From NCBI RefSeq assembly GCF_056746865.1, contig NZ_CM163382.1: a stretch of 64,000 nucleotides of DNA; one strand, written 5' to 3'. A model generated the notes under the pieces. It saw only the letters and a program-made list of their open reading frames with translations, was not told the DNA's origin and made no database searches. Numbering within the stretch: position 1 is the stretch's first letter; every line of letters starts with the position of its first letter. Positions 17,879-43,870 of this stretch are shown in pieces. The position numbers were made by a program, and so were the translations under genes.

Positions 17879-18002
17879 ATTTACTCCTTTCTAACATCAC
17901 CAGGAAAAGTATAACGGATTGAAAATACATTGTTTATAAAAACAGCAGGCGCGCGGTAATGGCTGGATTGCGACACGGAGTTACTTTATAATCCGCTACC
18001 AT

Positions 18003-18078
18003 GGCCCCTTAGCTCAGTGGTTAGAGCAGGCGACTCATAATCGCTTGGTCGTTGGTTCAAACCCAACAGGGGCCACCA
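18003..18078 (+). tRNA. ileX: tRNA-Ile (anticodon CAU, ileX-like)
   Basis: 76 nt: 7-bp acceptor stem GGCCCCT/AGGGGCC, D-arm, anticodon loop CTCATAA, T-arm GTTGG-TTCAAAC-CCAAC, 3' CCA. Ile2 rather than Met assignment is from memory of ileX and from position after mug. Confidence 0.85.
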
Positions 18079-18089
18079 TACACAACAAA

Positions 18090-18126
18090 GGGTTAGCTAA
18101 TAAACCAGCTAACCCTTTTTCTTTTT
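18090..18126 (+). terminator. Intrinsic terminator after the tRNA
   Basis: Stem gggttagct / agctaaccc with 8-nt loop, followed by tttttcttttt. Confidence 0.6.
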
Positions 18127-18136
18127 CCTTTGAATT

Positions 18137-18159
18137 GGGTCAGGTAATGGGTCAGGTAA
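18137..18159. repeat. Tandem direct repeat (gggtcaggtaa x2)
   Basis: gggtcaggtaa t gggtcaggtaa read directly, between the tRNA terminator and the first island gene. Confidence 0.5.
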
Positions 18160-18176
18160 GCTTTTTTCCATCTGAC

Positions 18177-19022
18177 TCAGATGGCTGATAATTGTCCCGG
18201 ATAACGCTTTGCAATGATGTCATTTAGCCGATCAACCAGTTCTGGTTTTCTGAATGTGATATGCGCGGAGCCCTTCTTAAAGTATCTGATGCTGAACATC
18301 TCATCTTCATAGCTCTCTTTACCCTGAACAGACTGAATGTGCTCATCCAGACGAATAGTGATGTTTTCCCGATTGTCGGGGATTGGTTTACCGCTGAACA
18401 GGTGCAACATTCTTTCCAGATCGGCGAGTCGGTCAGCCTGTTGTCCGGTGATAAGATGAAATCCCCACCGGTCCCATCTCACCAGATTGTTGACGATAAT
18501 TTTACTGCCAAATTTACAGGGGCAATTGGTTTTGTAATTCCAGTTCAGCCCTCTGAAGACGTTGATCACCCCTCGCTCAAACACCTCATCCTTATTCTGG
18601 TGCAGTTGTTCAAATGTGCTCAGGATGTTCGCTTCGCTGATTTCCGGAAAATTATCGTACTCCAGTGACCGGTACCATGTCTCACGGGCCTGTGCATCCA
18701 TTAAGGAAAGCATCCCGGAACGTTGCATCAAGTCACGCCAGATTTCACGATCGAGATTGTGTGTGATGGCTTTCATTGCCGTTTCAGGTTTCTCCATGAG
18801 CCAGCAGCCACAGCGAAAATCCTGTTTCATCGCCCAGTCCAGTGCGGTTTTACCGCCAATACTTTCTGTCATTGCTGAGATTTCAGCCAGTTGCCGGATA
18901 AGTGTGTTGATTTGCAGCAGTGTACTTTTTCGTACAGCCAGAATGTGGCGGATACTGGTTGAGCAGATAACGTCCGTATGCCCGTTGACTACTTCCGGAC
19001 GGGAGGCTGTGATATCAGACAT
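18177..19022 (-). CDS. Conserved hypothetical protein of CP4-type islands (possibly DUF4942 family)
   Basis: 281 aa ORF at the distal end of the cbtA module; family assignment from memory only. Confidence 0.5.
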   Translation of the reverse strand: MSDITASRPEVVNGHTDVICSTSIRHILAVRKSTLLQINTLIRQLAEISAMTESIGGKTALDWAMKQDFRCGCWLMEKPETAMKAITHNLDREIWRDLMQRSGMLSLMDAQARETWYRSLEYDNFPEISEANILSTFEQLHQNKDEVFERGVINVFRGLNWNYKTNCPCKFGSKIIVNNLVRWDRWGFHLITGQQADRLADLERMLHLFSGKPIPDNRENITIRLDEHIQSVQGKESYEDEMFSIRYFKKGSAHITFRKPELVDRLNDIIAKRYPGQLSAI

Positions 19023-19118
19023 AATCGATATTCCTTTTTGCAGATAAATGAAAACGCCAGCCCTGTTCAGGCTGGCGTCAGTGGAATGAAGTCTGGTGAG
19101 TGAGATGATGAGTGAAAC

Positions 19119-19361
19119 TCACCGGTTCGGGGGCTGAAGCTGCAGTTGGCGCAGGGTACGGATATCCTCCCTGGCCTGTTCAATACAGGACAACAGGGCT
19201 GTCGAATCCGTTTTATCCTCATCGTTGTCAAAGATAATTCCGGATTCACAGTCGATATTGTCCTGCAGCCACGCAATCAGAATATCCAGCGCTGTTTCCG
19301 TGGTTAATGATTTCATGTTGTTTCTGGTTACCAGTCGAAAGTGGGTAAATCCGGCAGACAC
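19119..19361 (-). CDS. Small hypothetical protein (80 aa)
   Basis: ORF overlapping the 3' end of the upstream 162-aa ORF by 34 nt in another frame; may be real or a frame remnant. Confidence 0.3.
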   Translation of the reverse strand: MSAGFTHFRLVTRNNMKSLTTETALDILIAWLQDNIDCESGIIFDNDEDKTDSTALLSCIEQAREDIRTLRQLQLQPPNR

Positions 19362-19816
19362 CCGGCGCTGGCATCCAGATGAATAAGACTGACGCCATAA
19401 CGCCGGATGAGAGTGACAACCAGACGGCGGAAGGTTTTTGACAGGCCCAGACGTTTAAGGTGTAGCACCGGATACGACAAAGCATCGGTACGTAACAGAT
19501 ACCCTCTGCCTGTAAAATGAATCCATTCTGATTCGCCGGTGTCATTCGTCTGATGCGACAGCGAGTACAGCCAGGTGTTGTCCGTTTCCGTGATATGTGC
19601 GGTACTGCAGCGTATGCCGGTAAGGGCAGCAAATGGTGGCGTGCAGTCTGCTGAGGTCCGGTCAGATTCATCAACAACACGAAGGGAGTAGCCGTTATCG
19701 CAGATCATGTTAATCAGTTCAGCGAGATTAACACCATCAATGTCAACGACAATTCGCCCCATATTCAGTGCCTGTACGTTAACGCTGTCGGCTTCCAGTG
19801 TCAGGGTCAGTTGCAT
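19328..19816 (-). CDS. Hypothetical protein (YeeW-like position), translationally coupled to cbtA
   Basis: 162 aa; its ATG overlaps the cbtA stop codon (19807-19816), suggesting co-translation. Confidence 0.5.
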
Positions 19817-20190
19817 CGTTTCGACTCCTGATGCTTACCCAGGGTAATGTTATTTACCGTTCTGTAATTGTCGCGGGTCATCAGGCCGGTTGCCCGGCGA
19901 GCCCGGAGAATATCAATACTGTTTATTAACTGAGAGCGGGTACAGGCGCTGAATCCCGGCTGGTCGGTACGTACCAGTGCGTATTTTTCAACGAGAAAGT
20001 TCACCGCATCGCACAGTGAAATGCCTGCCTCAATATGCTGCTCAATCACACGTTCATCAGCGAACGGTGTGTCATTCAGCGTAAGGCCGTAATGCTGGTC
20101 CAGCAGTCGGGTGAGCAGTGTCTGCCAGATTTCAACCGGAGACGGGCGTGAACTGGCCGCCTGCCCGGGTAATACAGGTAATGTTTTCAT
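19807..20190 (-). CDS. cbtA: CbtA (YeeV) family cytoskeleton-binding toxin
   Basis: 127 aa from internal Met [23 protein letters not shown]... (the track ORF has a 47-aa upstream extension); matches remembered CbtA/YeeV. Confidence 0.85.
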
Positions 20191-20279
20191 ACTGAAGATT
20201 TTCCTGATATGCAGAGATGAAAAATGGAAAAGTGGCGTGGTGAAAGCACCAGGCCGGAGCAGAAGGTTATTCTGGATAG

Positions 20280-20648
20280 TTACCTTTTCGTTTCGGGCGT
20301 CGGATAAACAGCCATATAAACGTAGCCACAACTGCCGAGGGTGTCGGCTTCGCAGGTCAGCCCTTTTGCATACAGCGTGACGGTATGCTGATGGCGGGAA
20401 TTCAGTTCACCGCTGGTGAGCATGAGTTCCAGTTGTTTCATCAGCAGCGGAAAGGCCTGGTCCAGGTGGTACGAATCCGCGTCGCTGAACCGGCCTCTGA
20501 TACCGGCGCGGTCGGCAAGGTAATGCAACCGGTTGCCCTCCTGCACCAGACGGGCGCCAAAACAAGGTGTCACGGTACAGGGCAGCCCCCACCAGGGGCG
20601 GTCGTGATTGTCATCGGGATGCGTTGTCCCGGGCAGTGTGTCTGACAC
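20280..20648 (-). CDS. cbeA: CbeA (YeeU) family antitoxin
   Basis: 122 aa [49 protein letters not shown]..., immediately upstream of cbtA. Confidence 0.85.
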
Positions 20649-20727
20649 AATAAAATCCTCACAGAAAATTGGTTAAGAATGGTCCGGTGGTGGCGATAAT
20701 TCTGCTCTTCTGAATGCCCTTCCGGAC

Positions 20728-20949
20728 TCAGTTCAGGGTGACGCTCATCAGCCGGACATACGGACCAAAACTGTCCTTACGGCGTTCTGCAAACACAGCC
20801 AGCACACCGGGAATATCCTGCACTTCACGGCCGGTATATGTATCCGTGCTACCGTGCCAGCGGTATTTGCCGGTACAGAACGGAAAAAGACGGGATGCCG
20901 GATGTTGTTGGTGAATACGCATGGCTTCACCACGGGTGATGATTTTCAT
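20728..20949 (-). CDS. yeeT: YeeT-like protein (DUF987)
   Basis: 73 aa, position between yeeS and cbeA as in CP4-44. Confidence 0.75.
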   Translation of the reverse strand: MKIITRGEAMRIHQQHPASRLFPFCTGKYRWHGSTDTYTGREVQDIPGVLAVFAERRKDSFGPYVRLMSVTLN

Positions 20950-21017
20950 GGTGTGATACCTCTTAAGACAGAAGATAAAAGTGAAAACAGGTGTGATGTG
21001 GTGGTGACGGTGACGGG

Positions 21018-21494
21018 TTAAAGCAGACCGTGTTCCGCAAAGGAGAAAACCTGGCTGCCACCGACTATCAGATGGTCCGGTACCCGGATATCCACCAGGC
21101 CCAGTGCCTGTACCAGACGTTCCGTGATAAGGCGGTCTGCCTTGCTGGGTGTGACTTCACCGGACGGGTGATTGTGTGCCAGCACCACGGCAGCGGCATT
21201 GTGGTACAGGGCACGTTTAATCACTTCCCGGGGATGGACTTCCGTGCGGTTGATGGTGCCGGTGAAGAGGGTTTCACCGGCAATCAGCTGATTCTGGTTG
21301 TTCAGATACAGCACCCGGAACTCTTCCCGCTCCAGTCCCGCCATGTTCAGAATCAGCCACTCCCGTGCCGCATGCGTGGAGGTGAAGGCCACGCCGGGTT
21401 CATGAAGATGGCGGTCCAGGGTTTTCAGGGCCCGCTGAATGAGGCTGCGCTCGCCGGGCGTCATCTCTCCGGGCAGAAAAGAAAGCTGTTGCAT
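21018..21494 (-). CDS. yeeS: RadC-like JAB-domain protein (YeeS family)
   Basis: 158 aa with HNHPSG metalloprotease-like motif. Confidence 0.8.
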   Translation of the reverse strand: MQQLSFLPGEMTPGERSLIQRALKTLDRHLHEPGVAFTSTHAAREWLILNMAGLEREEFRVLYLNNQNQLIAGETLFTGTINRTEVHPREVIKRALYHNAAAVVLAHNHPSGEVTPSKADRLITERLVQALGLVDIRVPDHLIVGGSQVFSFAEHGLL

Positions 21495-21508
21495 TGTTCC
21501 GGCCCCTT

Positions 21509-21994
21509 TCAGTCAATGATGCGCATAATGGCGTTGCATTCCGGATGCTGCAGGGCGTAATCCCGCAGCCGGTAATAATGGACCGTCATGGCATAACACT
21601 CCGTACGACAGGCATGATGGCTGTACGTCATCAGACAGGCAGCAATGCCGGCGGCTTCCGGGCTCATTTCAGCGCGGTTACCGTTCATGGCACTGAACAG
21701 TACCCATGTTTCGTCATCATCGTCATCCGGTTCGGGTGCCATAAATGCCCCGCCGTTGTTCAGGGTGTACAGATTCCAGATACCACCACAGTAGTCTTCG
21801 CACAGACGATCCATCCAGCCGAAGACACGGGGCTCCAGGGTCACCCACTGTGGAATGAGGCCAAAATGCTGCGGCCAGAAGCTGATGCGCTGTTCATCAG
21901 GGACGAGGGTGGCAACCAGTTGAGGCGGGTTATTCTCTGATACAGCGGTTACGGAAACAGAAGGTGTGGTGGAATTATGCAAAACGGTTGTCAT
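21509..21994 (-). CDS. Antirestriction protein (ArdB/KlcA-like, YfjX-type)
   Basis: 161 aa with acidic stretch (EPDDDDDE); position and size typical of antirestriction proteins in CP4-type islands; assignment from memory. Confidence 0.6.
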   Translation of the reverse strand: MTTVLHNSTTPSVSVTAVSENNPPQLVATLVPDEQRISFWPQHFGLIPQWVTLEPRVFGWMDRLCEDYCGGIWNLYTLNNGGAFMAPEPDDDDDETWVLFSAMNGNRAEMSPEAAGIAACLMTYSHHACRTECYAMTVHYYRLRDYALQHPECNAIMRIID

Positions 21995-22084
21995 GAGATT
22001 ATTCCTTATAAAAAGTAAATGAATGGAAGAAGTCGCGGGGCAGGGACGGACATGAGTCAGAACTGCGCTTTCAGGGAAAAGGCA

Positions 22085-22903
22085 TCAGCGCATACTCTTC
22101 AGCAGTGTTTCTGCCATCACCCACAATGCGCGATTGAGCTTAATGTCGGTGTCGATGCTGTGAATGGCACGGGTATGGATACGTTTTCCTCTGGCACTGC
22201 GACCGGAAATCCCGCCTTTCAGCATATTCTCCTGGATGGTCTGATAAGCACTCCACAGGTCCTTACCGTAATCCTCCCGGCGTCGCGGTGTCAGAATGTC
22301 AGCAGCGGTGACGGGCTGATGTTCGTCACCATAACGGTAAGTCAGTGCCGCCTGTGCCAGCGCCTGGCGTGCCGGTGGCGGCAGGACCAGCGACTGCATG
22401 GCATCACGCTTCTCCTCAATCCGGTCAAAAACCCCCACCACCTCGTAAGCCCCTTCGATAACTTTCTCCACTACGTCTCCCCGGTGTGGAACACGCACTT
22501 CCCCCAGAGACTGACCACAGACGCATCCGTTCTGGCAGACGAACCTGAAGTAACCCGGCAGCATCTGGTAGCTGGAGGTACCGTCATGGGAGTTCAGCAG
22601 GATGATTTCAGGGACATGTTGTCCGTTTATCTCCCCGTCACGGCGCAGACGCAGCATGTGTTTGGTGTATCCCCGGCGGCCCGGGTCGCGCACGCGGGTC
22701 TGGCAGGCGAAGAATGGCTGGAAGCCTTCCCGCTGCAGGCTTTCCAGCACGGTGATGGTGGGGATCCAGGTATAGTTCTCGCTTCTGGATGTGTGTTTCT
22801 CTTCCCCGAATACGCTGGGGACGACCTGCATCAGTTCTTCACGGGTTAAGGGGCGGTCACGGCGTATCTGGTTCGCATAACCAAAACGACTGGCTAATCG
22901 CAT
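22085..22903 (-). CDS. DUF932-family protein (YafZ/YfjQ-like)
   Basis: 272 aa; conserved partner gene of CP4-type islands. Confidence 0.55.
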   Translation of the reverse strand: MRLASRFGYANQIRRDRPLTREELMQVVPSVFGEEKHTSRSENYTWIPTITVLESLQREGFQPFFACQTRVRDPGRRGYTKHMLRLRRDGEINGQHVPEIILLNSHDGTSSYQMLPGYFRFVCQNGCVCGQSLGEVRVPHRGDVVEKVIEGAYEVVGVFDRIEEKRDAMQSLVLPPPARQALAQAALTYRYGDEHQPVTAADILTPRRREDYGKDLWSAYQTIQENMLKGGISGRSARGKRIHTRAIHSIDTDIKLNRALWVMAETLLKSMR

Positions 22904-23175
22904 GATTTATTCCTTATGAATGAGTTAGCGGTGTAAATGAAAAAGCCGCGTCTCCCGGAGAAGACGCGGCCTGATGGACGAAATGAATGACGTTTATTGT
23001 CTGAGAAGCCCTTCACTGGCGAGCTGCGTATTTTTATGGAAGGAGATCACCCAATAACCCCATCGGGATCGGGCAATAACCGGCCAAATTGTGAACGATT
23101 CAGATGCCATTTGGCAGCAAAAGAGCCTTCGGCAATAAACGTGATGTACAACCCGGCATATCTGTTGCTCCCTGA

Positions 23176-23207
23176 AAGTAAAAAGCCCCGGTCATTATGA
23201 CCGGGGC
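23176..23207 (-). terminator. Intrinsic terminator after flu (agn43)
   Basis: Minus-strand hairpin gccccggtca/tgaccggggc (loop taa) followed by U-run (plus-strand aaaaa at 23180-23184), 20 nt after the flu stop. Confidence 0.5.
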
Positions 23208-23229
23208 CTGAAGGGGAGTGACCTGATTA

Positions 23230-26076
23230 TCAGAAAGTCACATTCAGCGTGGCCTGACCGTTATAGCCTTCAGCGCTGTTGCCGCTGACACTGTGGGCAT
23301 AACCGGCCTGAACGCCCAGAGTGATATTTTCCCGGACACGGGCTTCCAGTCCGGCCTGCAGGTCCAGTGACGTGCCATTCTGTGACGGTGAGAACGTCAT
23401 GTTACTGCCGGCTTCAGCTGTACCCATGCTCATGTCACCCCGGGAGCTGAAAGTGCGGATAACAGAAGGCTGTACCCACCAGTTCACCGGCAGTTCACTC
23501 ACACGGTGTTTTGTACTGTCGCGCAGAGTGTCACGGGATGAGGTGCCTTCGCCAAAGGTCATATCGTTGTGGCTGCCCAGACGGAAGCCGGCACGCACAT
23601 GTTGTGTACTGCCATGCCCGAACTTCACATAACCGGCGTTATCCTGGCCGTCATCCAGGGAGAGCCCCTGCCAGGTGTACTGCAGTTGTGGCTCCAGCAT
23701 CAGGTTGTCAGTGATACTGAAGGGCAGACCGGTTTCCAGTGAGCCCAGCCAGCCCCAGCCCCGGGCGCGGAAGTCGTTATTGTCCGATGACGCTTTCATG
23801 CTGTGGCGGGTTCCCTGTGCCACAATGTCAGCCCACAGGCCGGAGGACGTGTGTGTCAGATTCAGGTATCCGCCCAGGCTGCCGGCATCATCCCGGACTG
23901 TGCCGGCGCGGGAACCGTCATCATCCTTAACATCAACGGAAGAATGACCTGCAGCACCATACACCCCTGTCGTCAGAGACATACCTGCAACCTCTGTTCT
24001 CAGCAGGTCACCCTCCAGACGGACGAAGCCATAGCTGCCGCTGCTTTCCGGCGTGGCTCCACGGGCAATACCGCCGTTGTTATCGTGACCGAGATGACCG
24101 CCCTGAATGCTGAGACGGACGCTGTTATTTTCACCGTTTACACCGGTCTGATGGCTGCGGGAGCCTGCCAGAATCCGGTCATAGTCCATTGCCTGTGTCA
24201 GCATGGAGGCATACAGGGGGACTTCAGCACGATAAGCATTTTCACTGCGCAGGTACCAGTCTTCATCGCTGTCACGGTTCAGGGTGTAGTTAAAGGCACC
24301 GGCCTGAAGCGGGCGACTCAGGGCAAACGCACCTTCTTCTGTGGTGGCACCATTCTGTGCATCCACAACCCGGATACCCTGTCCGGAGGTTGCCACCCCG
24401 AGGTTACTGTTTCCGACATTTGTGAACGCAAGCCAGGTTTTGCCGGTTGCCTGACCACCATTAATCACCAGCTGGTCAGAGGCATTGCTGCCATCAAGGC
24501 GAACACGCATATTGATGGTGCCACCCTGACCGGTGAGGTTACTGGTTGTCAGTTTATGGAACGTTACCGGGGCGTTGCCTTTTGCAACAGCACGGCTCAG
24601 TATGGCATCCGGTGTTGTCTGATTGTCAAAGTAAATCTCCCCTGCGTTAACAATATCGCCGGTACTGACCACATCACCATTCAGTACCATGCTGGCGCCT
24701 TTACTGAGCTGTGTTCTGCCACTCAGACTTCCCCCGGCAGCCAGCATCAGTGTTCCACGATGTCCGACAGTGGTGTTGCCAGCCTGTCCCCCGGCATTAA
24801 CCGTAAAGCTGCCGCCATTTTCCAGCAGCAGGCCGCTGGCCTGACCGGATATGCCATCAATACTGAACTTACCGCTGGCATTGGTCCCCTCAACAGTGGC
24901 ACCACTGTCTGCAATCAGGGCACCACCGGATGTCATGGTGACACCTGTCGCCTTACCACCGGCAGACACTGCCAGGGTTCCGCCGTCATCCACCCGTGTT
25001 TTCTGCGCTGAATGGCCCTCCAGTACATCCAGGCGACCGCCGGACTCCAGAACAACACCGTCAGCCTTACCGTTTTCCACCGTGAAATTCCCCAGACGGT
25101 TGCTGCCGGTGACGGTTGCCGCCGTACTGGTGACCAGTGCGCCGCCCTGCTTCAGGGTGACATTCGTGGCTGTACCACCGGCGTTCACCTGCAGTTTGCC
25201 TTTCTGGTTAACGGTGGAGAAATCCGCCAGACCACCTTCCTTGATAATCTGCCAGCCGTCACTGTTTACAACAGTGCCAGACGCCGTACCGCCGTTGTGC
25301 ACATACTGGTACCCCCCATTCAGCGTGGTATCCAGTGCGTGACCATGTACAGTCTGGTCGCCGCCGGCATAAACCACAGTGGTATTTGCCGTTCCTTCAG
25401 CAGCCACAATCTGACGACCATTTTTATTGATGGTGGTGCGTACGGCATCTCCGTAGACGGTCTGCCCGGTATCACCATTTTCTGCATCCGGTCCCCCTTC
25501 CGCGCCGGTATTCACAACCGTGTCGGTTGCCATTGCGCCGGATTTGACGGCCTGCCAGCCCTTCTCATTAATGACGGTACCCGTTGCAATCCCGCCTTCA
25601 TGTATCCACTGCTCACCGCCGTTCAGAGTGGTGTTCACTGCCTGCCCCTGAAGGCTCTGTCCGCCTCCGGCACTGATAACCGTGTCTGAAACGCTTCCTC
25701 CGGCATTCACTCTCTGAAGACCACCACCGGTGACAGTAGTGTTGTTGGCGGTACCGCCATTTTGTATCCATTGGCCGCCGGTATTCGCCTCGTTATCCGG
25801 CCCATACTCCAGCCCGGTACTGATGGTCATTCCGTTGGCCGTACCGAAGACAATCTGGTTGTCATGATTTGTCAGTGTTCCGCCGCTCACGGTTTCTCCC
25901 GCCTGTACGACCGTGTCAGCAGCCAGTACCGGGACTGACGTGACAGCAGCAAGAGACAGCGCAACCGCCACACCGGTGCGTTTTCCCCGTGAGCGCGCCA
26001 GTTCGGAAGCCACCACCAGGGTGCCCGTAATGTGATTCCATACCAGCCTGTAGCTGGTGTTCAGATGTCGTTTCAT
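23230..26076 (-). CDS. flu: Antigen 43 self-associating autotransporter adhesin
   Basis: 948 aa from Met MKRHLNTSYRLVWNH... (26th codon of the track ORF); long signal peptide, repetitive passenger domain, C-terminal beta-barrel ending NVTF. Confidence 0.88.
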   Translation of the reverse strand: MKRHLNTSYRLVWNHITGTLVVASELARSRGKRTGVAVALSLAAVTSVPVLAADTVVQAGETVSGGTLTNHDNQIVFGTANGMTISTGLEYGPDNEANTGGQWIQNGGTANNTTVTGGGLQRVNAGGSVSDTVISAGGGQSLQGQAVNTTLNGGEQWIHEGGIATGTVINEKGWQAVKSGAMATDTVVNTGAEGGPDAENGDTGQTVYGDAVRTTINKNGRQIVAAEGTANTTVVYAGGDQTVHGHALDTTLNGGYQYVHNGGTASGTVVNSDGWQIIKEGGLADFSTVNQKGKLQVNAGGTATNVTLKQGGALVTSTAATVTGSNRLGNFTVENGKADGVVLESGGRLDVLEGHSAQKTRVDDGGTLAVSAGGKATGVTMTSGGALIADSGATVEGTNASGKFSIDGISGQASGLLLENGGSFTVNAGGQAGNTTVGHRGTLMLAAGGSLSGRTQLSKGASMVLNGDVVSTGDIVNAGEIYFDNQTTPDAILSRAVAKGNAPVTFHKLTTSNLTGQGGTINMRVRLDGSNASDQLVINGGQATGKTWLAFTNVGNSNLGVATSGQGIRVVDAQNGATTEEGAFALSRPLQAGAFNYTLNRDSDEDWYLRSENAYRAEVPLYASMLTQAMDYDRILAGSRSHQTGVNGENNSVRLSIQGGHLGHDNNGGIARGATPESSGSYGFVRLEGDLLRTEVAGMSLTTGVYGAAGHSSVDVKDDDGSRAGTVRDDAGSLGGYLNLTHTSSGLWADIVAQGTRHSMKASSDNNDFRARGWGWLGSLETGLPFSITDNLMLEPQLQYTWQGLSLDDGQDNAGYVKFGHGSTQHVRAGFRLGSHNDMTFGEGTSSRDTLRDSTKHRVSELPVNWWVQPSVIRTFSSRGDMSMGTAEAGSNMTFSPSQNGTSLDLQAGLEARVRENITLGVQAGYAHSVSGNSAEGYNGQATLNVTF

Positions 26077-27584: not shown

Positions 27585-29141
27585 ATGACAAGTATTCAAC
27601 AACGAGCAGAACTGCACCGCCAGATATGGCAAATTGCCAATGATGTCAGAGGTTCTGTTGACGGATGGGATTTTAAGCAATACGTTCTGGGCGCACTTTT
27701 CTACCGTTTTATCAGCGAAAATTTTTCCAGTTATATTGAAGCCGGTGATGACAGTATCTGTTATGCGAAACTGGATGACAGCGTAATTACTGATGACATT
27801 AAAGACGATGCCATCAAAACTAAAGGCTACTTCATCTACCCCAGTCAGCTTTTCTGCAACGTAGCGGCGAAAGCAAATACTAATGACAGGCTGAATGCAG
27901 ATTTAAACAGCATCTTCGTTGCTATCGAAAGTTCTGCTTACGGTTATCCTTCAGAAGCTGACATCAAAGGTTTGTTTGCTGATTTCGATACCACCAGTAA
28001 CCGCCTGGGTAACACCGTTAAGGATAAAAATGCCCGCCTGGCTGCGGTTCTGAAAGGGGTTGAAGGGTTAAAACTTGGTGACTTCAACGAACATCAGATT
28101 GACCTGTTCGGTGATGCCTATGAGTTCCTGATTTCTAACTATGCGGCAAATGCCGGTAAGTCAGGCGGTGAGTTCTTTACACCGCAGCACGTCTCCAGGC
28201 TGATTGCACAACTGGCTATGCACGGGCAGACCAGCGTTAACAAAATCTACGACCCGGCAGCGGGTTCCGGCTCACTGTTGTTGCAGGCGAAAAAACAGTT
28301 TGATAACCACATCATCGAAGAAGGCTTTTTCGGTCAGGAAATCAACCATACGACCTATAACCTGGCGCGTATGAACATGTTTTTGCACAACATCAACTAC
28401 GACAAGTTTGATATCAAGCTGGGTAATACACTGACTGAGCCACACTTCAGAGATGAAAAACCGTTTGATGCCATCGTTTCTAACCCGCCGTATTCGGTGA
28501 AATGGATTGGCAGCGATGACCCGACGCTGATTAACGATGAACGTTTTGCCCCGGCTGGCGTTCTGGCCCCCAAATCAAAAGCTGACTTCGCCTTTGTACT
28601 ACATGCGCTGAACTATCTTTCTGCCAAAGGTCGCGCCGCGATTGTCTGCTTCCCGGGTATTTTTTACCGTGGCGGCGCGGAGCAGAAAATCCGTCAGTAT
28701 CTGGTCGATAATAACTATGTCGAAACCGTGATTTCACTGGCACCGAACCTGTTCTTTGGCACCACCATTGCCGTCAATATTCTGGTGCTGTCTAAACATA
28801 AAACGGATACCAAAGTTCAGTTTATTGACGCCAGCGAACTGTTCAAAAAAGAGACTAATAACAACATCCTGACCGATGCTCATATCGAACAGATTATGCA
28901 GGTATTTGCCGGCAAGGAAGATGTTGCTCATCTGGCGAAATCTGTCACGTTTGAGACTGTTGTCGCGAATGACTATAACCTGTCGGTGAGCAGCTATGTG
29001 GAAGCGAAAGATAACCGCGAAGTGGTGGACATTGCTCAGCTCAACGCCGAGCTGAAATCTACTGTCGCCAGGATTGACCAGCTTCGCAGGGATATTGATG
29101 CCATCGTCGCTGAAATTGAAGGCGAGGAGCAGGAGGCATGA
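27585..29141 (+). CDS. hsdM: Type I restriction-modification system, N6-adenine DNA methyltransferase subunit
   Basis: 518 aa; AdoMet motif [10 protein letters not shown] and catalytic NPPY ([11 protein letters not shown]); N-terminal HsdM domain. Confidence 0.92.
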
Positions 29142-30343
29142 GTAGCGTGAACTTCTTGGAAAAGCTGTTGGATGGCGTTGAGGTCGAGTGGAAGACACTT
29201 GGGCAAACTTGCAAAATTGAAACAGGAAAGCTTAATGCGAATGCGGCTGTTGATGATGGAGAGTATATGTTCTTCACGACAGCCAAAGAGACAAGCAAAA
29301 TTGATAAATTCCGCTGGGATACAGAGGCATTGCTGATTGCAGGCAATGCGAATGTTGGTGAGGTGAAGCATTACATCGGCAAGTTTGAGGCTTATCAGCG
29401 CACCTATGTTCTGACAAATTTCGACGAAAATGTAAGTGTTAGATTTTTGTATTTTGTGCTTAGCCATAGCCTGAAGAAATATCTCGAGGAAAGAACAAAT
29501 AGCGCGGCAATGACATATATCGTGCTATCAACCTTAGAGAATTTCCCTATCCCCATCCCCTGCCCAGGCAACCCCCAAAAATCCCTTGCCATCCAGTCTG
29601 AAATCGTTCGGATTCTGGATAAATTTACTGCACTTACCGCTGAGCTTACCGCTGAGCTTAACATGCGTAAAAAACAGTACAACTACTATCGCGACCAGTT
29701 GTTGAGTTTTAAAGAGGGTGAGGTTGAGTGGAAGACTTTGGGGGAAATTGGAGATTTTACATATGGATATGCAGCCAAAGCCATGGATTCAGGAGATGCC
29801 CGTTTCGTGAGAATTACTGACATAAATAAAGACGGGAAGCTATCGAAAGAAAACCCAATGTACGTTGAATTAAATGAGGAAAATGAGAAATATACCTTAG
29901 ACAAAAATGATTTACTCATGGCAAGAACTGGGGCAACCTTTGGTAAAACAATGATTTTTGAAGAAGATTATCCAGCAGTATACGCTGGTTTTTTAATAAA
30001 GTTGAACCTAAATAAAACGATTATTAATGCCAAATATTACTGGCACTTTGCACAAAGTGATTTTTTTTGGGAACAGGCTAATAAATTAGTATCTGGTGGT
30101 GGGCAACCACAGTTTAATGCTAATGCACTGAAACAAGTCAGAGTACCTATTCCATACCCATCTCACCCTCAAAAATCTTTAGACGAACAGGGGCGTATTG
30201 TGGATATTCTGGATAAGTTTGATGCAATCGCAGCTTCCATCACCGAAGGTCTCCCGCGTGAAATCGAGTTACGTCAAAAACAATACGAATACTATCGTGA
30301 TTTACTGCTCAGTTTCCCAAAACCTGAAACTGTCAGTAAATAA
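29138..30343 (+). CDS. hsdS: Type I R-M specificity subunit (type IC architecture)
   Basis: 401 aa; ATG overlaps hsdM stop; two variable recognition domains separated by a conserved central region with TAELTAEL and conserved distal region ([24 protein letters not shown]). Confidence 0.9.
29633..29656 (+). repeat. 12-bp tandem repeat cttaccgctgag x2 in hsdS (TAEL x2)
   Basis: Two perfect tandem copies plus a 4-nt partial third (ctta), read directly; encodes LTAELTAEL in the HsdS central spacer. Confidence 0.9.
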
Positions 30344-33581: not shown

Positions 33582-33731
33582 GGAAGGTGCGAATAAGCAG
33601 GTCATTTCTTCCCAAGCTGACTCGCTGATTAAAATTTCGCGGATCTGGGCCGATTTTTTTCCCGCAAACACATCGAATCGGCCTGTTTAGGCTATTTTTT
33701 CCACCATTTCTGGCGTTATTTCCGGTTTTTA

Positions 33732-36015
<2,284 letters not shown>

Positions 36016-36184: not shown

Positions 36185-36715
36185 TCACACCATCTCAAGT
36201 TTTACCGCGTCATAACCACACTGAACCAAACATTCACCGCAACCATTACATATTGCAGCATCGATTACAGGCATTCCGCTTTCGTTGATTGAGCATGCCT
36301 GAAGTGGGCATAGATCGACACACTGTTTGCAACTGCGCACCGGATTAACACAATTTGCTTTAAAAACGGGACGCAATCCGGTGTCGAAACGAGCCTGCGG
36401 ACGTAATGCCTCAGTGGAACATGCAGCTATACATAAGCCGCAGCCGTCACAACTGGCAAATTCAATCACCAATTGCGGATAGCCATCTTCATGCCGGTTG
36501 AGAATGCCCATGGGACAGGCATTAATACACAAATCACACTGCGTGCACTGCACACGAAACTGCGCATCAGGTAACGCGCCGGGAGGTAAGGAGTGCACAG
36601 GTAATATCGGTGTTGTTACCGGGCGTGCCGCGCTGACAAAGGCCCGAAATAGCCCACGTCGGCTAACATACCGATGAGACATTAACTCCTGATAATAATT
36701 TTCTGACTTACTCAT
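36185..36715 (-). CDS. Ferredoxin-type protein with multiple 4Fe-4S motifs (NapF-like)
   Basis: Several CxxCxxCxxxCP motifs; start taken at MSKSENYYQ... whose ATG overlaps the upstream chaperone stop (ATGA). Confidence 0.65.
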   Translation of the reverse strand: MSKSENYYQELMSHRYVSRRGLFRAFVSAARPVTTPILPVHSLPPGALPDAQFRVQCTQCDLCINACPMGILNRHEDGYPQLVIEFASCDGCGLCIAACSTEALRPQARFDTGLRPVFKANCVNPVRSCKQCVDLCPLQACSINESGMPVIDAAICNGCGECLVQCGYDAVKLEMV

Positions 36716-37308
36716 CCAAGAAAGAGCCGTTTGGTTGGAGGATTTAGTGCCTGTTGCTGCTGATAATCCTGCAGAAACAGTGTCGCAATCTGCGCCAACT
36801 TCGCGTAAAACGCACTGACAGGGTTGCGCTGTAATAACTCCAGATAACGATATCCCCACGGCAGCAAATGCGTTTCCAGCAATTGATTCGCTGCGCGTTC
36901 TTTCCCCTCTGCCAGCAAGGCGCTACAGGCAAGCAGCATCAGGCCAAACTGATCTTCCGGTTCATTTATACAGGAATCAAACGTCATTCCCTGATCACGA
37001 AGGAACTTCCGGTACTCGGCAGTGCTGTCCCCCATCAACAGATTATCTTTTTCGAGATATACCGAACCCCAGGGTGGTGCTGGCATTTCACCCTGTCCTT
37101 CAAAAAGAACAGAAAATTGCCAGAGATGCTGCTCCTCATCCGGGATTGACCAGTCAGAGCATAATTCAGCCACCTGGCGGGGATCGCGCCAGGGGTATAT
37201 CTCATCCAATGTCGGCAGACAGTCAAACAGTGCCCGAACTTCAGGACGCGTGGGAGAATAGTAAAACAGGGCACCAAGAATACGCACCAGTACGGCTGGG
37301 GAAGGCAT
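36712..37308 (-). CDS. TorD/DmsD-family redox enzyme maturation chaperone
   Basis: About 199 aa from MPSPAVLVRILGALFYY...; position after the membrane anchor as in dms/ynf operons. Confidence 0.6.
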   Translation of the reverse strand: MPSPAVLVRILGALFYYSPTRPEVRALFDCLPTLDEIYPWRDPRQVAELCSDWSIPDEEQHLWQFSVLFEGQGEMPAPPWGSVYLEKDNLLMGDSTAEYRKFLRDQGMTFDSCINEPEDQFGLMLLACSALLAEGKERAANQLLETHLLPWGYRYLELLQRNPVSAFYAKLAQIATLFLQDYQQQQALNPPTKRLFLG

Positions 37309-37362: not shown

Positions 37363-38139
37363 TTACATAGGGATGGTCCAGAGGTTGTAGAAACCGATCC
37401 GACCAACCAGTTCAGCAGCAATAACCACCAGTGCAGTCATCGCCAGCACAGCTTGCCCACTTTTCATGCGTGCATAGAGCAGTGCCCCAATAACACCCAG
37501 CGCCAACAGAATGGCCTGAGCGGTAAACCAGGTGGACTGCGCAGCGGTAATAACGCCATCAGCACTCATTAGCGTGGAAATATAACCCGGACGCAAACAG
37601 AAACTCGCCAGAATCGCCAGTACACTTACCAGCAGCCCCAGACGACGAACGCCAAACAACGCCGCCAACATGCCGCCACCGATAAGTGCAGTTAGCACCA
37701 TCATCATGGTGGTGTAAGAGGTACTCCAGGTCGCTACCGTTGCCAACTGGTAAATACGCGGGATGGCAAAGATAAACACGACTCCAATCGCAGCGGCCAG
37801 CCATACCAGTACTTTACAAAGCATTGCACCACCGCGATTTAACAGCAAACCGAGAGATCCCAGTCCTCCGGCTGCGGCAAAACATGCCGAAAGCACGATT
37901 TCGTTACTCATAGGAGAACTGCCGACACGGAATAGCATATTCAGCGCTCGCAGCGGCTGCCCGACATGAATGGTGCCAAGCACAACACCCACACCAAACA
38001 AGCACATCACCGAAAAGAGACCAATCGCCATACGACGTGGCTCAATTAATCCCATGGCACCGCCAATCAGCAGCAGAATAAACGCCCCCACTGCGCTCTG
38101 GGTAAATACGGTGAAAAAGACCAGTGGTAACTCATGCAT
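37363..38139 (-). CDS. DmsC-like membrane anchor subunit
   Basis: 258 aa, eight predicted hydrophobic segments; overlaps the B-subunit stop by 8 nt. Confidence 0.75.
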   Translation of the reverse strand: MHELPLVFFTVFTQSAVGAFILLLIGGAMGLIEPRRMAIGLFSVMCLFGVGVVLGTIHVGQPLRALNMLFRVGSSPMSNEIVLSACFAAAGGLGSLGLLLNRGGAMLCKVLVWLAAAIGVVFIFAIPRIYQLATVATWSTSYTTMMMVLTALIGGGMLAALFGVRRLGLLVSVLAILASFCLRPGYISTLMSADGVITAAQSTWFTAQAILLALGVIGALLYARMKSGQAVLAMTALVVIAAELVGRIGFYNLWTIPM

Positions 38140-38758
38140 GGCGCACCTCCCGAATGTTCATGATCGCCCCTTCTTTGTCGCCCGTAGGTCGCGCCAGCGG
38201 ATGCGGTTTAATTATCAGGTTAGGATGCGTAAACGAAGCGGCAGGTAACGGTGCGATTTCATTTTCACTGCCATATTTCGCCCGCAATTCGTCGATAGGA
38301 CCAAAATCCAAAGCTCGCTGTGGACAGGACTCAACACAAATAGGCGGGAGATTTTTCTCCAGTCGGTCAAGGCAACCATCACACTTACGCATCACTTTAG
38401 CTTGTGTATCAAACTGCGGTGCACCATAAGGGCAGCGCATTTCGCAGTAACGACAGCCCACACAAACACTGTCATCCACCAGCACCAGGCCATCTTCTTC
38501 GCGTTTGTGCATCGCGCCGGTTGGGCAACCTGCCACACAGGTCGGTTCATCGCAGTGATTGCAGGCAATCGACAAATAGTAAGTGAAGGTATTGTTGTGC
38601 CAGCTTTCACCTTCTTTCACCCAGCTACCGCCACCATATTCATACACGCGGCGCAGCTTCGGTCCGACATCCAAATCTTTATTATCCTTGCAGCTTACCT
38701 GGCAGGTTTTGCAGCCAGAGCAACGCGAGGAGTCAACGTAAAAACCATACTGTTTCAT
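38132..38758 (-). CDS. DmsB-like 4Fe-4S electron-transfer subunit
   Basis: 208 aa with four Cys-cluster motifs (CSGCKTCQVSC, CNHCDEPTCVAGCP, CVGCRYCEMRCP, CDGC...C). Confidence 0.85.
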   Translation of the reverse strand: MKQYGFYVDSSRCSGCKTCQVSCKDNKDLDVGPKLRRVYEYGGGSWVKEGESWHNNTFTYYLSIACNHCDEPTCVAGCPTGAMHKREEDGLVLVDDSVCVGCRYCEMRCPYGAPQFDTQAKVMRKCDGCLDRLEKNLPPICVESCPQRALDFGPIDELRAKYGSENEIAPLPAASFTHPNLIIKPHPLARPTGDKEGAIMNIREVRHA

Positions 38759-38771
38759 TGCGGATCACTCC

Positions 38772-41207
38772 CTAAGCGCGTTTGATTTCAACCAGGTTGG
38801 TATGTTGCGGGTTCCCTTTCGCCAGCGGCGACGGCAGGTGGCTGGTCAATGTGTTAATACATCCACCCACGTCCACACCGTTGCTGTCCAGTCGGGTCCA
38901 CGCGCCTTGCGGCATTGCCACCACGCCCGGCAGGATGCGCTGTGTCACCTTGCAGGGGATCTCCACCACACCGCGATCGTTGAATACATGGACCATATCG
39001 CCTGATTTCAACTGACGCACGCTGGCGTCTATCGGGTTGATCCAGACTTCATCCGGTACCGCTTCATGCAGCATCAGCACACTGGCATATGTTGAGTGCG
39101 TGTGACCTTTGGTGTGAAAACCGCTCATCTGTAGCGGATACTTTGCTGTCAGACTCTTGTTCAGATGGGACTCTGTCACTATACAAAATTCAGGAACAGC
39201 CGGAATGCGATCTCCTTCCGGTAGTGTCCAGGCTTTAGCCAGTTCCGCCAGAGTGTGCGAGTAAATCTCAATCTTCCCGGAAGGTGTCGTCAGTGGACTG
39301 GCAACCGGATCATGGCGGAAATCAGCAAGGATAATACTGTCCTCATCACGAGTACCTTGCTGATCGATAACCCCCATATTCATTGCAACTTCCCATTCAG
39401 GCAGATATGATCGCTTCTCTTTAACTTGTCCGTAATGCTTCGCCATCCACTCTGCCTGAGTACGCCCCTCAGTAAAACGCTCTCTTACCCCAAGATGCCC
39501 CGCAATATCTGCACAGATATCATAGGTACTGCGTACTTCCCACATCGGTGTGATCGTTTTTTGCATTGCAATCATGTAATGGTGAGAACCGGCTGCATAG
39601 GAACTGTCCACCAGATCCTCGGCTTCTAAGTAGCTAGTTTCTGGAAGAAGGATATCGGCAAAGCGGGCACTGGCAGTCATATGATTATCAATAACCACGA
39701 TAGTTTCGCACAGGCTGTCATCTTCAAGTATTTTGCGTGTACGATTGATATTTCCATGTTGATTCAGAAGTGCATTCCCGGCCTGGTTGAAGAACAGTTT
39801 AATACCGGTTTTCAGTTTATCCGCGCCTTTAACCCCCATAGTGGTGGCTGTCATTTTTTCCGGACTTTGAATCGCATCTGTCCACAGATAGCAGGGGATT
39901 GACACCTTAACGGGATTTTCACCAATCGGCAGAGCAGGAACACCATAAGGTGTTCCGTATGTCCAGTTCCCATTGTTGGTTCCTGGCAATCCAAAATGAC
40001 CCGTCAGGGCAGGAAGTATCTGAACCGCTCTGGAAGTCTGTTCACCATTTGCATGACGCTGTGGCCCCCATCCCTGGGCAATGAAACAGGCCCGAGCTTC
40101 GGCCATTTCACGTGCCAACTGGCGAATACGAATAGCCGGGATGCCACAGATATCTGCCGCCCATTCAGGTGTTTTTTCGACGCCGTCATCACCGTTACCC
40201 AGAACATAGTCTTTATAACTGGCATTTGGTTTCGCCGTTTCCGGAAGGGTGCTACGATCATAACCGACACAATAAGTATTGACTCGTTCTTCGTCGATCA
40301 GATTTTCTTTTATCAACGTGTGTGCAATAGCTGCTACCAGTGCAGCATCGGTTGTAGGGCGAATTGGTAACCATTCAGCATGTTCTGTAACAACAGAGTC
40401 TGTATAGCGCGGATCGATGATAATCACCCGGGCGCCTGATATTTCCAGCGCACGGCGCAGTTCTTCAACTTGCCCACCACCGGACATCCGAGTCTCAGAT
40501 AAATTCAGACCAAAAAAAACCACAAGATCAGAATGCGCAATCTGGCTAAAATGACTGGCAAACTGTACTCCTGTAGCACCATACGTGTAAGATGTGGCGG
40601 TAAAGTTTTGAGCGTTTGAGTAATTATTGTAATACTGCAGAAAACCGCCATTCAGGTTCAATAACCTTTTCCATGCGGGTGTTCCTTGGTTATGATAATA
40701 CGCGCCAGATTGATAATTAAAATAGATTGCTTCATTTCCATATTTTTCAGAAACGCGCTTTAATTCAGCGGCAATAAAGGCTGTGGCCTCATCCCATGAA
40801 ATACGTTTAAATTTCCCTTCTCCGCGTTTACCAACACGTTTCATCGGATATTTAATCCGGTCAGGGCTATAAACACGCCAGCGGCTGGAACGACCACGTA
40901 GGCAAGGTCGAATCTGATGTTCACCAAAAACAGAGTCGTCCTTCGCGTCCTCGGCTTCAATACGAACAATGCGTCCGTCTTTTACGATAACTTTTAATGG
41001 ACAACGACTTCCGCAATTCACCAGGCAAGCACTATGCCTGACGGTTTCAGCATTTTCGTTGGTTTTACCGGTATCCGATGTTTCGGCCCTGACGGTTGTG
41101 GAAAAAGGCAAAGTGATGGCGTTGCTTAGTGCAACGGCAGCTCCCAATTTTGCAGTTGTAGTCACCGCATCACGTCGGGAGATTGTTGTATTTAACAACT
41201 CTTTCAT
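38772..41207 (-). CDS. DMSO reductase-family molybdopterin oxidoreductase catalytic subunit (DmsA/YnfE-like)
   Basis: 811 aa; twin-arginine signal (TISRRDAVTT), N-terminal Cys cluster (HSACLVNCGSRCP), molybdopterin domains. Confidence 0.85.
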   Translation of the reverse strand: MKELLNTTISRRDAVTTTAKLGAAVALSNAITLPFSTTVRAETSDTGKTNENAETVRHSACLVNCGSRCPLKVIVKDGRIVRIEAEDAKDDSVFGEHQIRPCLRGRSSRWRVYSPDRIKYPMKRVGKRGEGKFKRISWDEATAFIAAELKRVSEKYGNEAIYFNYQSGAYYHNQGTPAWKRLLNLNGGFLQYYNNYSNAQNFTATSYTYGATGVQFASHFSQIAHSDLVVFFGLNLSETRMSGGGQVEELRRALEISGARVIIIDPRYTDSVVTEHAEWLPIRPTTDAALVAAIAHTLIKENLIDEERVNTYCVGYDRSTLPETAKPNASYKDYVLGNGDDGVEKTPEWAADICGIPAIRIRQLAREMAEARACFIAQGWGPQRHANGEQTSRAVQILPALTGHFGLPGTNNGNWTYGTPYGVPALPIGENPVKVSIPCYLWTDAIQSPEKMTATTMGVKGADKLKTGIKLFFNQAGNALLNQHGNINRTRKILEDDSLCETIVVIDNHMTASARFADILLPETSYLEAEDLVDSSYAAGSHHYMIAMQKTITPMWEVRSTYDICADIAGHLGVRERFTEGRTQAEWMAKHYGQVKEKRSYLPEWEVAMNMGVIDQQGTRDEDSIILADFRHDPVASPLTTPSGKIEIYSHTLAELAKAWTLPEGDRIPAVPEFCIVTESHLNKSLTAKYPLQMSGFHTKGHTHSTYASVLMLHEAVPDEVWINPIDASVRQLKSGDMVHVFNDRGVVEIPCKVTQRILPGVVAMPQGAWTRLDSNGVDVGGCINTLTSHLPSPLAKGNPQHTNLVEIKRA

Positions 41208-41413: not shown

Positions 41414-43870
<2,457 letters not shown>

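Follow-up and report, generated by a model that had tools for sequence, protein, structure and literature searches.

The question raised by this locus is what role is played by three genes that follow the toxin gene cbtA in a genomic island. The window, that is the whole stretch of DNA analysed, comprises 64,000 nucleotides of contig NZ_CM163382.1 (RefSeq assembly GCF_056746865.1). A sequence-only reading had described the three as uncharacterised open reading frames translationally coupled to the toxin gene, and had suggested an accessory toxin-regulating or defence role.

Layout and identity of the three genes

The list of open reading frames contains all three genes at the positions given for them. 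They lie on the minus strand, in the same orientation as the antitoxin gene cbeA/yeeU (20280-20648, minus strand) and the toxin gene cbtA (19807-20190, minus strand), the former upstream of the latter and the latter directly upstream of the three-gene block. Annotation of the island, which holds cbeA/cbtA, an antirestriction gene and hsdMSR, bears out the described context of antirestriction and restriction-modification (R-M) genes. RefSeq already annotates identical proteins for all three genes (100% identical DNA), and the families are already catalogued and ordinary in occurrence.

The first gene (19328..19816, minus strand; ORF list, Pfam and RefSeq name) encodes a DUF5983/YeeW-type protein of 162 aa. 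It matches both domain profiles of the family, PF25638 (DUF5983_N) at residues 4-58 (E=2.8e-31) and PF19419 (C-terminal DUF5983) at residues 69-162 (E=2e-20), and the two domains are joined by a low-confidence linker. A VOC (glyoxalase)-like fold, comparable to TflA (3PKX), has been proposed for DUF5983 (bioRxiv 10.1101/2024.01.30.577995). A family member in the corresponding place, directly after cbtA/yeeV, is yeeW in prophage CP4-44 of E. coli K-12; in islands of avian pathogenic E. coli the gene is known as Aec77. However, only about 135 nt of the 5' part of the gene match in K-12, whereas the window gene is full length; moreover, a match in K-12 was not found for the DUF957 and DUF4942 genes, both of which come after DUF5983 in the window.

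The second gene (19119..19316, minus strand; RefSeq, identical DNA) encodes a small acidic protein of 65 aa and 7.4 kDa with pI 4.2, and its ATG lies 11 nt after the DUF5983 stop codon. The longest-ORF rule yields an ORF of 80 aa (19119-19361, minus strand) that overlaps the last 34 nt of DUF5983, and this was the length initially reported. Almost certainly the protein has 65 aa instead and starts at ATG 19316: this is the RefSeq start, and the conserved N-terminus of the homologues, M-x-x-LTTE, begins here, whereas the upstream extension is not conserved. The identical RefSeq product is named "DUF957 domain-containing protein"; the 65-aa protein had no match in the Pfam-A library even at E<=10 and none in NCBIfam. 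Plasmid homologues annotated as DUF957 are 45-49% identical to it.

The third gene (18177..19022, minus strand), with its own AAGGA ribosome-binding site, encodes a DUF4942/YdiA-type protein of 281 aa. The Pfam family DUF4942 (PF13708) is matched at residues 87-275 over model positions 1-189 of 190 (E=1.1e-68), and the RefSeq name agrees. This is the final gene of the island, its 3' end being about 50 nt from the island junction near tRNA-Ile (island/core junction at about 18126/18127). Between its stop codon and the junction there is a tandem direct repeat, GGGTCAGGTAA-T-GGGTCAGGTAA (18137..18159), which is probably an arm-type recombinase binding site. Analogous lineage-specific tandem repeats are found downstream of DUF4942 in other genera.

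A gap of 96 nt separates DUF957 from DUF4942. It contains a GC-rich hairpin of 11 pairs followed by a T-rich tail (19053..19079, minus strand), which resembles an intrinsic terminator and lies 31 nt before the DUF4942 ATG. Equivalent hairpins occur in 67 of 75 distinct upstream regions from other loci, compared to 0.65 expected in shuffles, and are formed by 24 different stem arms; in a 28-sequence subset, four of seven pairs have compensatory changes. No sigma-70-like promoter was seen between the hairpin and DUF4942. The only match in an Rfam search of positions 17900-23300 was the tRNA. The three genes are thus not a single coupled unit, DUF4942 being separated by a conserved terminator-like hairpin.

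The order of genes and elements in the module is DUF932, KlcA/ArdB antirestriction, RadC/JAB, DUF987, CbeA, CbtA, DUF5983, DUF957, the terminator hairpin, DUF4942, tandem repeats, and the island end. The three ORFs are the distal end of an accessory module of CP4-44/CP4-57-type integrative islands.

That no function could be assigned is borne out. Profile searches with the three proteins gave only DUF families in Pfam and no characterised family; NCBIfam and PADLOC (no model match for any of the three at E<=0.1) gave nothing, PHROGs gave only families of unknown function and one methyltransferase family, and no homology to a housekeeping family was found. For neither the modelled DUF4942 nor the modelled DUF5983 protein was a matching solved fold found. 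Sequence searches of PDB with all three proteins, and with profiles of DUF4942 and DUF5983, produced nothing meaningful, and a Foldseek search of AFDB50 with DUF4942 retrieved only family members and methyltransferase fusions. In these fusions (phrog_6263; P0322, P0388, UniProt A2SNG5), a minority of the relatives, DUF4942 is followed by an N6-adenine-type methyltransferase. Their first 270 residues are homologous to the window protein (36-41% identity); it ends before the point where the fusions continue into a class I SAM methyltransferase, which carries EPSAGxG and NPPF motifs.

The three ORFs are genuine genes under purifying selection. They are not chance ORFs, since dN/dS across genera is low (DUF5983 0.16, DUF957 0.17, DUF4942 0.10, compared to 0.20 for cbtA) and thousands of intact copies exist. 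Among 5426 complete E. coli genomes, 3275 (about 60%) contain the block at >=80% coverage, with a median of three places per genome, and about 90% of complete E. coli genomes show a match to part of it. Most copies are intact.

Plasmid homologues and a proposed role in establishment

All three families occur on plasmids, DUF4942 on 4348 (3999 of them predicted conjugative), the DUF5983 C-terminal domain on 2435 (1960) and DUF957 on 1340 (1225). The plasmid copies are found without cbtA, in leading regions, beside ardA, klcA, psiB and ssb and in the same orientation as these genes. IncK plasmids have the order psiB, psiA, ardA, ..., DUF4942, yggA, oriT region, nikA, nikB; pOXA-48-type IncL plasmids JAB, DUF4942, antirestriction, ssb, DUF5983 C-domain, relaxase; and Klebsiella IncFIB plasmids psiB, psiA, ..., DUF932, DUF5983, SLT, traM. 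On IncHI2 plasmids DUF957 adjoins DUF3085.

In the tabulated data of Samuel et al. (Nature 2024), YdiA/DUF4942 is family 24, with median position 1 from oriT, and DUF5983 is family 72 (n=618), with median position 2. Both are listed there among the top leading-region families, with enrichment statistics, and the table rows for these families report no anti-restriction or anti-CRISPR similarity. The literature search turned up no paper on YdiA in connection with the "leading region". In IncK plasmids the non-coding DNA that precedes DUF4942 folds as a single strand far better than shuffled sequences (z=-6.5), which would fit a leading-region single-strand promoter. Transposon sequencing (TnSeq) of pESBL found DUF4942 (Hp22) dispensable for maintenance and laboratory transfer, and ArdA and PsiB likewise. 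CbtA and RadC domains are described by Iyer et al. [quoted passage not shown]

The plasmid YdiA proteins, including Hp22 of pESBL, belong to the same Pfam family as the window protein, contain the full domain and align over 93-96% of its length; however, the identity is only 33-38%. Both are encoded by the terminal gene of an array with antirestriction, JAB/RadC, DUF932 and DUF905 genes. The window gene is chromosomal and stands by the island end, after CbeA/CbtA and the hairpin, whereas plasmid YdiA follows a long structured non-coding region and is typically the first gene from oriT. The plasmid DUF5983 proteins (family 72 of Samuel et al.) are short; on IncF, IncI-like and IncL plasmids they are encoded next to oriT or in the leading region, and they match the C-terminal domain, residues ~70-162, at 36-41% identity (tblastn), with profile E-values from 6.5e-9 to 1.7e-25. 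Unlike the window gene, they have no matching DUF5983_N and no coupling to cbtA.

This placement of the homologues in leading regions beside ardA, klcA, psiB and ssb, together with the rank of DUF4942 and DUF5983 among the top families there, points to counter-defence or establishment rather than defence. Judging from homology and gene position, we give an even chance to the reading that the block serves a mobile element in establishment or counter-defence. The block would act at an early stage, as the element enters a new host, and would be neither a host defence system nor an obligatory part of the toxin-antitoxin pair. DUF4942 may be a non-catalytic helical plus alpha/beta module, most likely binding DNA or a DNA-directed host protein, and could shield or mark the incoming DNA. 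DUF957, a small acidic and probably dimeric protein, would resemble proteins that serve as inhibitors or DNA mimics.

Several observations stand against the establishment reading. Firstly, the plasmid YdiA proteins are diverged, and the plasmid DUF5983 proteins retain the C-terminal domain only. Secondly, the conserved coupling to cbtA (see below) argues for a toxin-linked role of DUF5983. Thirdly, as noted, the table rows of Samuel et al. list neither anti-restriction nor anti-CRISPR similarity. Finally, the terminator-like hairpin precedes the chromosomal DUF4942, and between the two no sigma-70-like promoter was seen. In the surrounding annotation on this side of the island, neither an oriT nor a relaxase or integrase was seen close to the block. 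In the 336-nt spacer upstream of DUF932 no long single-strand (Frpo-like) hairpin was found; the folding z-score there is only -2.5 and is explained by two terminators.

Linkage to the toxin gene

In the window, the ATG of DUF5983 (19816-19814) lies 4 nt upstream of the cbtA TGA (19809-19807), so that the genes overlap by 10 nt, ATGCAACTGA (19807..19816, minus strand). This is the translational-coupling junction; GGAG occurs inside cbtA, 8-11 nt upstream of the ATG. The gene had been thought to start on the cbtA stop codon. Here the ATG precedes the TGA, whereas a 4-nt stop/start overlap, NTGA, is indeed present in 23 of 27 distinct cbtA-DUF5983 junctions from related loci across genera. The coupling is truly conserved, and the window has a point variant of it. 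Coupling had been claimed for the whole block; the sequence supports it for DUF5983 only, the spacing and the hairpin speaking against it for DUF957 and DUF4942.

Eighty loci of DUF4942 from about 26 enterobacterial genera were collected by a search of contigs with a 12-sequence alignment. In 73 of them CbtA is matched within 7 kb upstream of DUF4942, usually adjacent to it; DUF5983 is found in 45 and DUF957 in 27. DUF4942 is thus the constant partner of CbeA/CbtA among these loci, whereas DUF5983 and DUF957 are optional, many loci retaining CbeA-CbtA-DUF4942 without them. Co-occurrence with the toxin gene is not obligatory for DUF5983 and DUF957, and the families also occur on plasmids without cbtA.

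The small gene is, judging by its position, probably what AntiFam lists as ANF00264 ("frameshifted phage protein"), a small domain just after DUF5983 by cbtA/cbeA. ANF00264 and DUF5983 are reported to stand consistently beside cbtA/cbeA, and ANF00264 is predicted to form a confident homodimer (bioRxiv 10.64898/2026.06.09.728211).

These data bear on the main competing explanation, in which the type IV CbeA/CbtA system has a third component, DUF5983 (perhaps with DUF957), serving as a regulator, a second antitoxin or a chaperone. It is favoured by the NTGA overlap, by the consistent neighbourhood of ANF00264 and DUF5983, and by a published survey in which DUF5983 is always downstream of CbtA in E. 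coli lineages. The domain PF25638 was observed solely in cbtA-linked copies, and in-frame DUF5983_N-DUF957 fusions exist in Hafnia and Serratia. Toxin-antitoxin-chaperone operons likewise have an extra small gene coupled to the pair, in a conserved order. However, the extra genes considered here are absent from many CbtA loci and present on plasmids without the toxin. We regard a third component as possible but on balance improbable. DUF5983 would in that case be produced in a fixed ratio to the toxin, set by the overlapping stop and start codons. Such a third component would be compatible with the establishment reading for DUF4942.

The proposed toxin-regulating role is thus weakened, because all three families occur on thousands of mostly conjugative plasmids without cbtA; what remains of it is a possible CbtA-linked role of the N-terminal half of DUF5983. 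DUF5983 would be produced in step with CbtA via the overlapping stop and start codons, and its N-terminal domain may tune the toxin module, since this domain is seen here only beside cbtA.

Other explanations and wider significance

DUF4942 might also be an accessory DNA-processing factor, acting in excision and integration at att and in relaxosome function at oriT. It is the nearest gene in both settings, about 50 nt from the island junction by the repeats and beside the IncI/K oriT region, and its median position in the table of Samuel et al. is 1 from oriT. However, the TnSeq of pESBL scored it as non-essential and not required for transfer; in the pOXA-48-type plasmid several kb, including other leading-region genes, separate it from the relaxase; a distant homologue follows korB on an IncP-like contig; and the methyltransferase fusion suits DNA marking better than recombination. 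We consider this role unlikely.

The suggested defence role, in the form of a host anti-phage or anti-plasmid system, finds no support in PADLOC. Toxin-antitoxin modules can work in abortive infection, and the island also holds the toxin-antitoxin pair and a type I R-M system. On the other hand, neither Pfam nor NCBIfam shows a nuclease, NTPase or sensor domain in the three proteins, their plasmid homologues reside in leading regions among anti-restriction and SOS-inhibition genes, and in other copies of the island the 6 kb read on the corresponding side are free of R-M genes. Such a system is very unlikely.

It is even harder to view the genes as relics of a cryptic prophage-like element that are decaying and no longer have a function. 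Only the yeeW fragment is left in K-12, and some loci have truncated or deleted versions. However, purifying selection on the three genes is equal to or stronger than that on cbtA, the thousands of intact copies are full length and form multiple diverged lineages per genome, and the gene order is conserved over about 26 genera.

Two views deny the small ORF independence, and we find them highly improbable: that it is spurious, AntiFam's original view, or that programmed frameshifting appends it to the C-terminus of DUF5983, as proposed for ANF00264 (bioRxiv 10.64898/2026.06.09.728211). The 80-aa frame does share the end of DUF5983, and some database proteins contain both parts. Against this, DUF957 is kept across genera, under the selection given above, and most copies have their own ATG after an AGG/GGA-type ribosome-binding site. 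A fusion in the window would require a +1 shift, and no obvious slippery site was seen in the sequence. We rejected programmed frameshifting because the frame of the small ORF relative to DUF5983 varies by genus (0, +1 or +2, with a gap of 11 to 34 nt). The data favour an independent gene.

Source databases name DUF4942 proteins "restriction methylase" and "restriction endonuclease subunit M". On Klebsiella IncF plasmids DUF932-DUF5983 has an "N-6 DNA methylase" as neighbour, and this protein is related neither to DUF4942 nor to the methyltransferase that the fusions contain. That DUF4942 is itself a DNA methyltransferase or R-M subunit, as these names, its match to phrog_6263 "DNA methyltransferase" and the C-terminal domain of some relatives might imply, is scarcely credible: the window protein has no SAM-binding Rossmann fold with motif I (xxGxG) and motif IV ((D/N/S)PP(Y/F)), and we count catalysis by DUF4942 alone as already refuted.

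A broader form of the establishment reading, less likely than not, can be offered tentatively. The distal module of CP4-44-type islands may be a domesticated or still-active "leading region", with DUF4942 as a DNA-binding counter-defence protein of new fold that acts first on entry. DUF5983_N and DUF957 would together add a layer of control to the type IV CbtA/CbeA system; they might, for example, time a transient halt of division while the element becomes established. The conserved hairpin would gate the expression of DUF4942.

The genes of the block are among the most widespread unknowns of E. coli, and their plasmid relatives are among the first genes to enter the recipient in conjugation of IncI/K, IncL (pOXA-48-type) and Klebsiella IncF resistance plasmids. 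Their function would bear on the establishment of resistance plasmids and genomic islands in new hosts, and might reveal how mobile elements use the CbtA division toxin.

Gene array and insertion site

The island genes around the block all lie on the minus strand, in this order of transcription: DUF932 (22903-22085), an antirestriction gene (21994-21509), RadC/JAB (21494-21018), DUF987 (20949-20728), cbeA/yeeU (20648-20280), cbtA (20190-19807), the 162-aa DUF5983 ORF (19816-19328), the small DUF957 ORF (19316-19119; the longest-ORF rule would start it at GTG 19361) and the 281-aa DUF4942 ORF (19022-18177). The ORF coordinates proposed in the sequence-only reading agree exactly with the gene positions in the window. 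Deeper in the island are Ag43, a GTPase and hsdMSR. The hsdS ORF (29138-30343, plus strand) encodes 401 aa and is 54 nt longer than in a comparison record (383 aa) that is 100% identical to the window over 18080-20700, which points to a type I specificity variant other than that of the record.

The window is a piece of E. coli chromosome whose core order is dnaG, rpoD, mug and tRNA-Ile (ileX, annotated at 18003-18078, plus strand). The island starts at about 18127, just beyond the tRNA terminator; thus the insertion point lies about 48 nt 3' of ileX (18079-18127) and not within the tRNA gene. In most complete E. coli genomes the core match ends at window position 18091 or 18126, and only 347 of 5426 carry the island at this site. 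No integrase was seen near its tRNA-side end. Between the DUF4942 stop codon and the junction there is a tandem pair of 11-mers GGGTCAGGTAA with period 12 (18137-18159). In other genera (homologous loci L009-L088) similar repeats with other sequences occur at most about 140 nt downstream of DUF4942, e.g. GATGGCATAC, TGTTGGTA(T/C)AAA, GAGGGTACA and TTGGGGGC, each present twice. These repeats are probably arm-type recombinase sites.

Elsewhere in the window, a block of about 1.85 kb with IS5-family and IS3-family transposase ORFs is present in two copies of the same orientation (33729-35570 and 41561-43402). They flank a DMSO/selenate-reductase-type operon with dmsA-like (38772-41207), dmsB-like (38132-38758) and NapF-like ferredoxin (36185-36859) genes; a comparison record otherwise identical around the cbtA-linked genes has just one IS in this place. 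At 52116-53639, minus strand, an ORF matches the model TIGR04416, group II intron reverse transcriptase/maturase, with E=1.7e-100.

Composition of the module and the hairpin before DUF4942

Of 5426 complete E. coli genomes, 4924 contain some match to the 1.7-kb block and 3275 cover at least 80% of it, with a median of three places per genome. The copies mostly match at 87-92% identity, and thus single genomes contain several diverged block lineages. K-12 retains only a short yeeW fragment. Scanning one genome per species produced 80 loci from about 26 enterobacterial genera, with median dN/dS (Nei-Gojobori) of 0.16 for DUF5983, 0.17 for the small ORF, 0.10 for DUF4942 and 0.20 for cbtA; as dS is close to saturation, these ratios are approximate, yet clearly far below 1. 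Disruption of the ORFs in most genomes, which the sequence-only reading would have counted against them, is not seen, and junk DNA is an unlikely description of the block. Three enterobacterial-type modules, 61-84% identical to the window DUF4942, come from assemblies labelled 'Chryseobacterium sp. 18061' (L039, L055) and 'uncultured Clostridia' (L087, a MAG). Contamination or mislabelling is likely, since the coordinates and identities of L055 nearly equal those of the Citrobacter locus L054.

All 80 loci were chosen via DUF4942, and its upstream flank contains hits to CbtA in 73, CbeA in 62, RadC in 59, DUF5983 in 45 and DUF957 in 27 of them. In Pectobacterium, Erwinia, Dickeya, Brenneria and several Yersinia loci, RadC-CbeA-CbtA are directly followed by a hairpin and DUF4942. 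Therefore DUF4942 is the constant partner and always the last gene of the module, and DUF5983 and DUF957 are an optional insert. Eight Yersinia and Serratia loci (L014, L017, L025-L027, L032, L033, L047) deviate in gene order: a CbtA-like hit precedes a CbeA-like hit, the reverse of the usual antitoxin-toxin order, and DUF4942 follows; in several of them the first gene matches only the C-terminal domain of DUF5983.

In the window, the small gene and DUF4942 are separated by a GC-rich hairpin (19079-19053) that has a stem of 11 bp and is followed by a T-rich tail. Equivalent hairpins (perfect, at least 7 bp with at least 5 GC pairs, 8-41 nt before the extrapolated DUF4942 start) were found in 67 of 75 distinct upstream regions, regardless of the preceding gene, against 0.65 in shuffles. 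They have 24 different stem arms, that is, compensatory variation. No sigma-70-like promoter was observed between the window hairpin and DUF4942. Thus DUF4942 is a separate expression unit, reached via read-through or an unrecognised promoter. The proposed translational coupling of all three genes to the toxin holds for DUF5983, which overlaps cbtA, but the block, with DUF4942 behind the hairpin, is not one coupled set.

The cbtA junction, the small gene and the DUF4942 family

At 23 of 27 distinct junctions the cbtA stop codon and the DUF5983 start share the overlap NTGA, and a GGAG-like site lies within cbtA. In the window (19807-19816) the usual TGA is lost by a point difference (ATGAAA to ATGCAA), so that CbtA ends two residues later (...KRCN) and the overlap measures 10 nt instead of 4. 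A programmed frameshift has been proposed for AntiFam ANF00264 (2026 preprint, bioRxiv 10.64898/2026.06.09.728211), to which, judging by position, the small gene may correspond. However, the small gene starts 11 nt past the DUF5983 stop in the window, this gap is 11-34 nt in other genera with relative frame 0, +1 or +2, and in most copies it has an ATG of its own together with an AGG/GGA-type ribosome-binding site, which makes a frameshift product unlikely. In-frame fusions that join DUF5983_N (residues 1-50/63) to DUF957 and have the C-terminal domain deleted occur at four Serratia sp. DD3 loci and in Hafnia alvei (L018). In the DD3 genome the module end is present at least six times (L020-L023, L042, L043); the four copies with the fusion match the query proteins at identical coordinates and have a truncated cbtA.

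The DUF4942 family comprises 2191 clusters (50% identity, E<=1e-3), with W95, D201, H254 and N267 invariant. Four of the best 150 members extend C-terminally into a class I methyltransferase that has the motifs EPSAGxG and NPPF, and this fusion suggests that the DUF4942 domain may have a DNA-directed role. As the window protein has no methyltransferase part, it is wrongly named 'restriction methylase' or 'subunit M' in databases, and methyltransferase activity is unlikely. Distant homologues were found on an IncP-like contig beside a C5 methylase, on a phage-like contig, and by a Tn7-like element.

Plasmid relatives and the role of the block

A tblastn search of 72,556 plasmids found DUF4942 on 4348 (3999 predicted conjugative), the DUF5983 C-terminal domain only on 2435 (1960) and DUF957 on 1340 (1225). 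Their contexts are leading regions. An IncK plasmid and pESBL-EA11 have the order psiB, psiA, ardA, ..., DUF4942, yggA, oriT, nikA, nikB; a pOXA-48-type plasmid has JAB, DUF4942, antirestriction, ssb and a DUF5983 C-domain gene, then the relaxase. DUF932 and DUF5983 are the final leading-region genes ahead of the SLT gene and traM in Klebsiella IncFIB plasmids, and DUF957 lies within an array of small co-oriented genes in IncHI2 plasmids. Samuel et al. (Nature 2024, supplementary table) list DUF4942/YdiA as leading-region family 24 (n=2171, FDR p=0), at a median position of 1 from oriT, and DUF5983 as family 72 (n=618), at a median position of 2; both have the label 'Uncharacterized'. A TnSeq study of pESBL found the DUF4942 gene (Hp22) to be neither essential nor required for transfer, and the same held for ArdA and PsiB, a pattern to be expected for establishment genes that are useful only under some conditions. 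Upstream of DUF4942 in an IncK2/Z plasmid (L089, 8490-8950) lies a GC-rich non-coding spacer of about 460 nt. As single-stranded DNA it folds into a long, imperfect hairpin of -114.8 kcal/mol (z=-6.5), a stability reached by 0 of 100 shuffles. The spacer resembles leading-region single-strand promoters and may be one. According to Iyer et al. (2017), the polyvalent proteins that contain CbtA and RadC domains are those of conjugative elements only.

The best-supported reading, to which we give about an even chance, is that the genes of the block serve a mobile element in establishment or counter-defence. They are homologues of those entering first with conjugative plasmids, and the island module, with DUF932, KlcA/ArdB, RadC, in other copies DUF905, and DUF4942 last, mirrors a leading region and has the block at its end; host defence is unlikely. 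The main rival, which we consider rather improbable, is a toxin-linked role of DUF5983, with or without DUF957; it would fit the conserved coupling of this gene to cbtA and the confinement of its N-terminal domain to copies linked to cbtA.

The block is no new kind of element: its proteins are identical to RefSeq entries, its families are catalogued but uncharacterised, and their leading-region enrichment was published before, in a supplement. The small points that appear to be new are the conserved hairpin setting DUF4942 apart from the toxin operon, the evidence for the small ORF as an independent gene under selection and not a frameshift product, and the identification of DUF4942, not DUF5983, as the constant companion of CbeA/CbtA across Enterobacterales.
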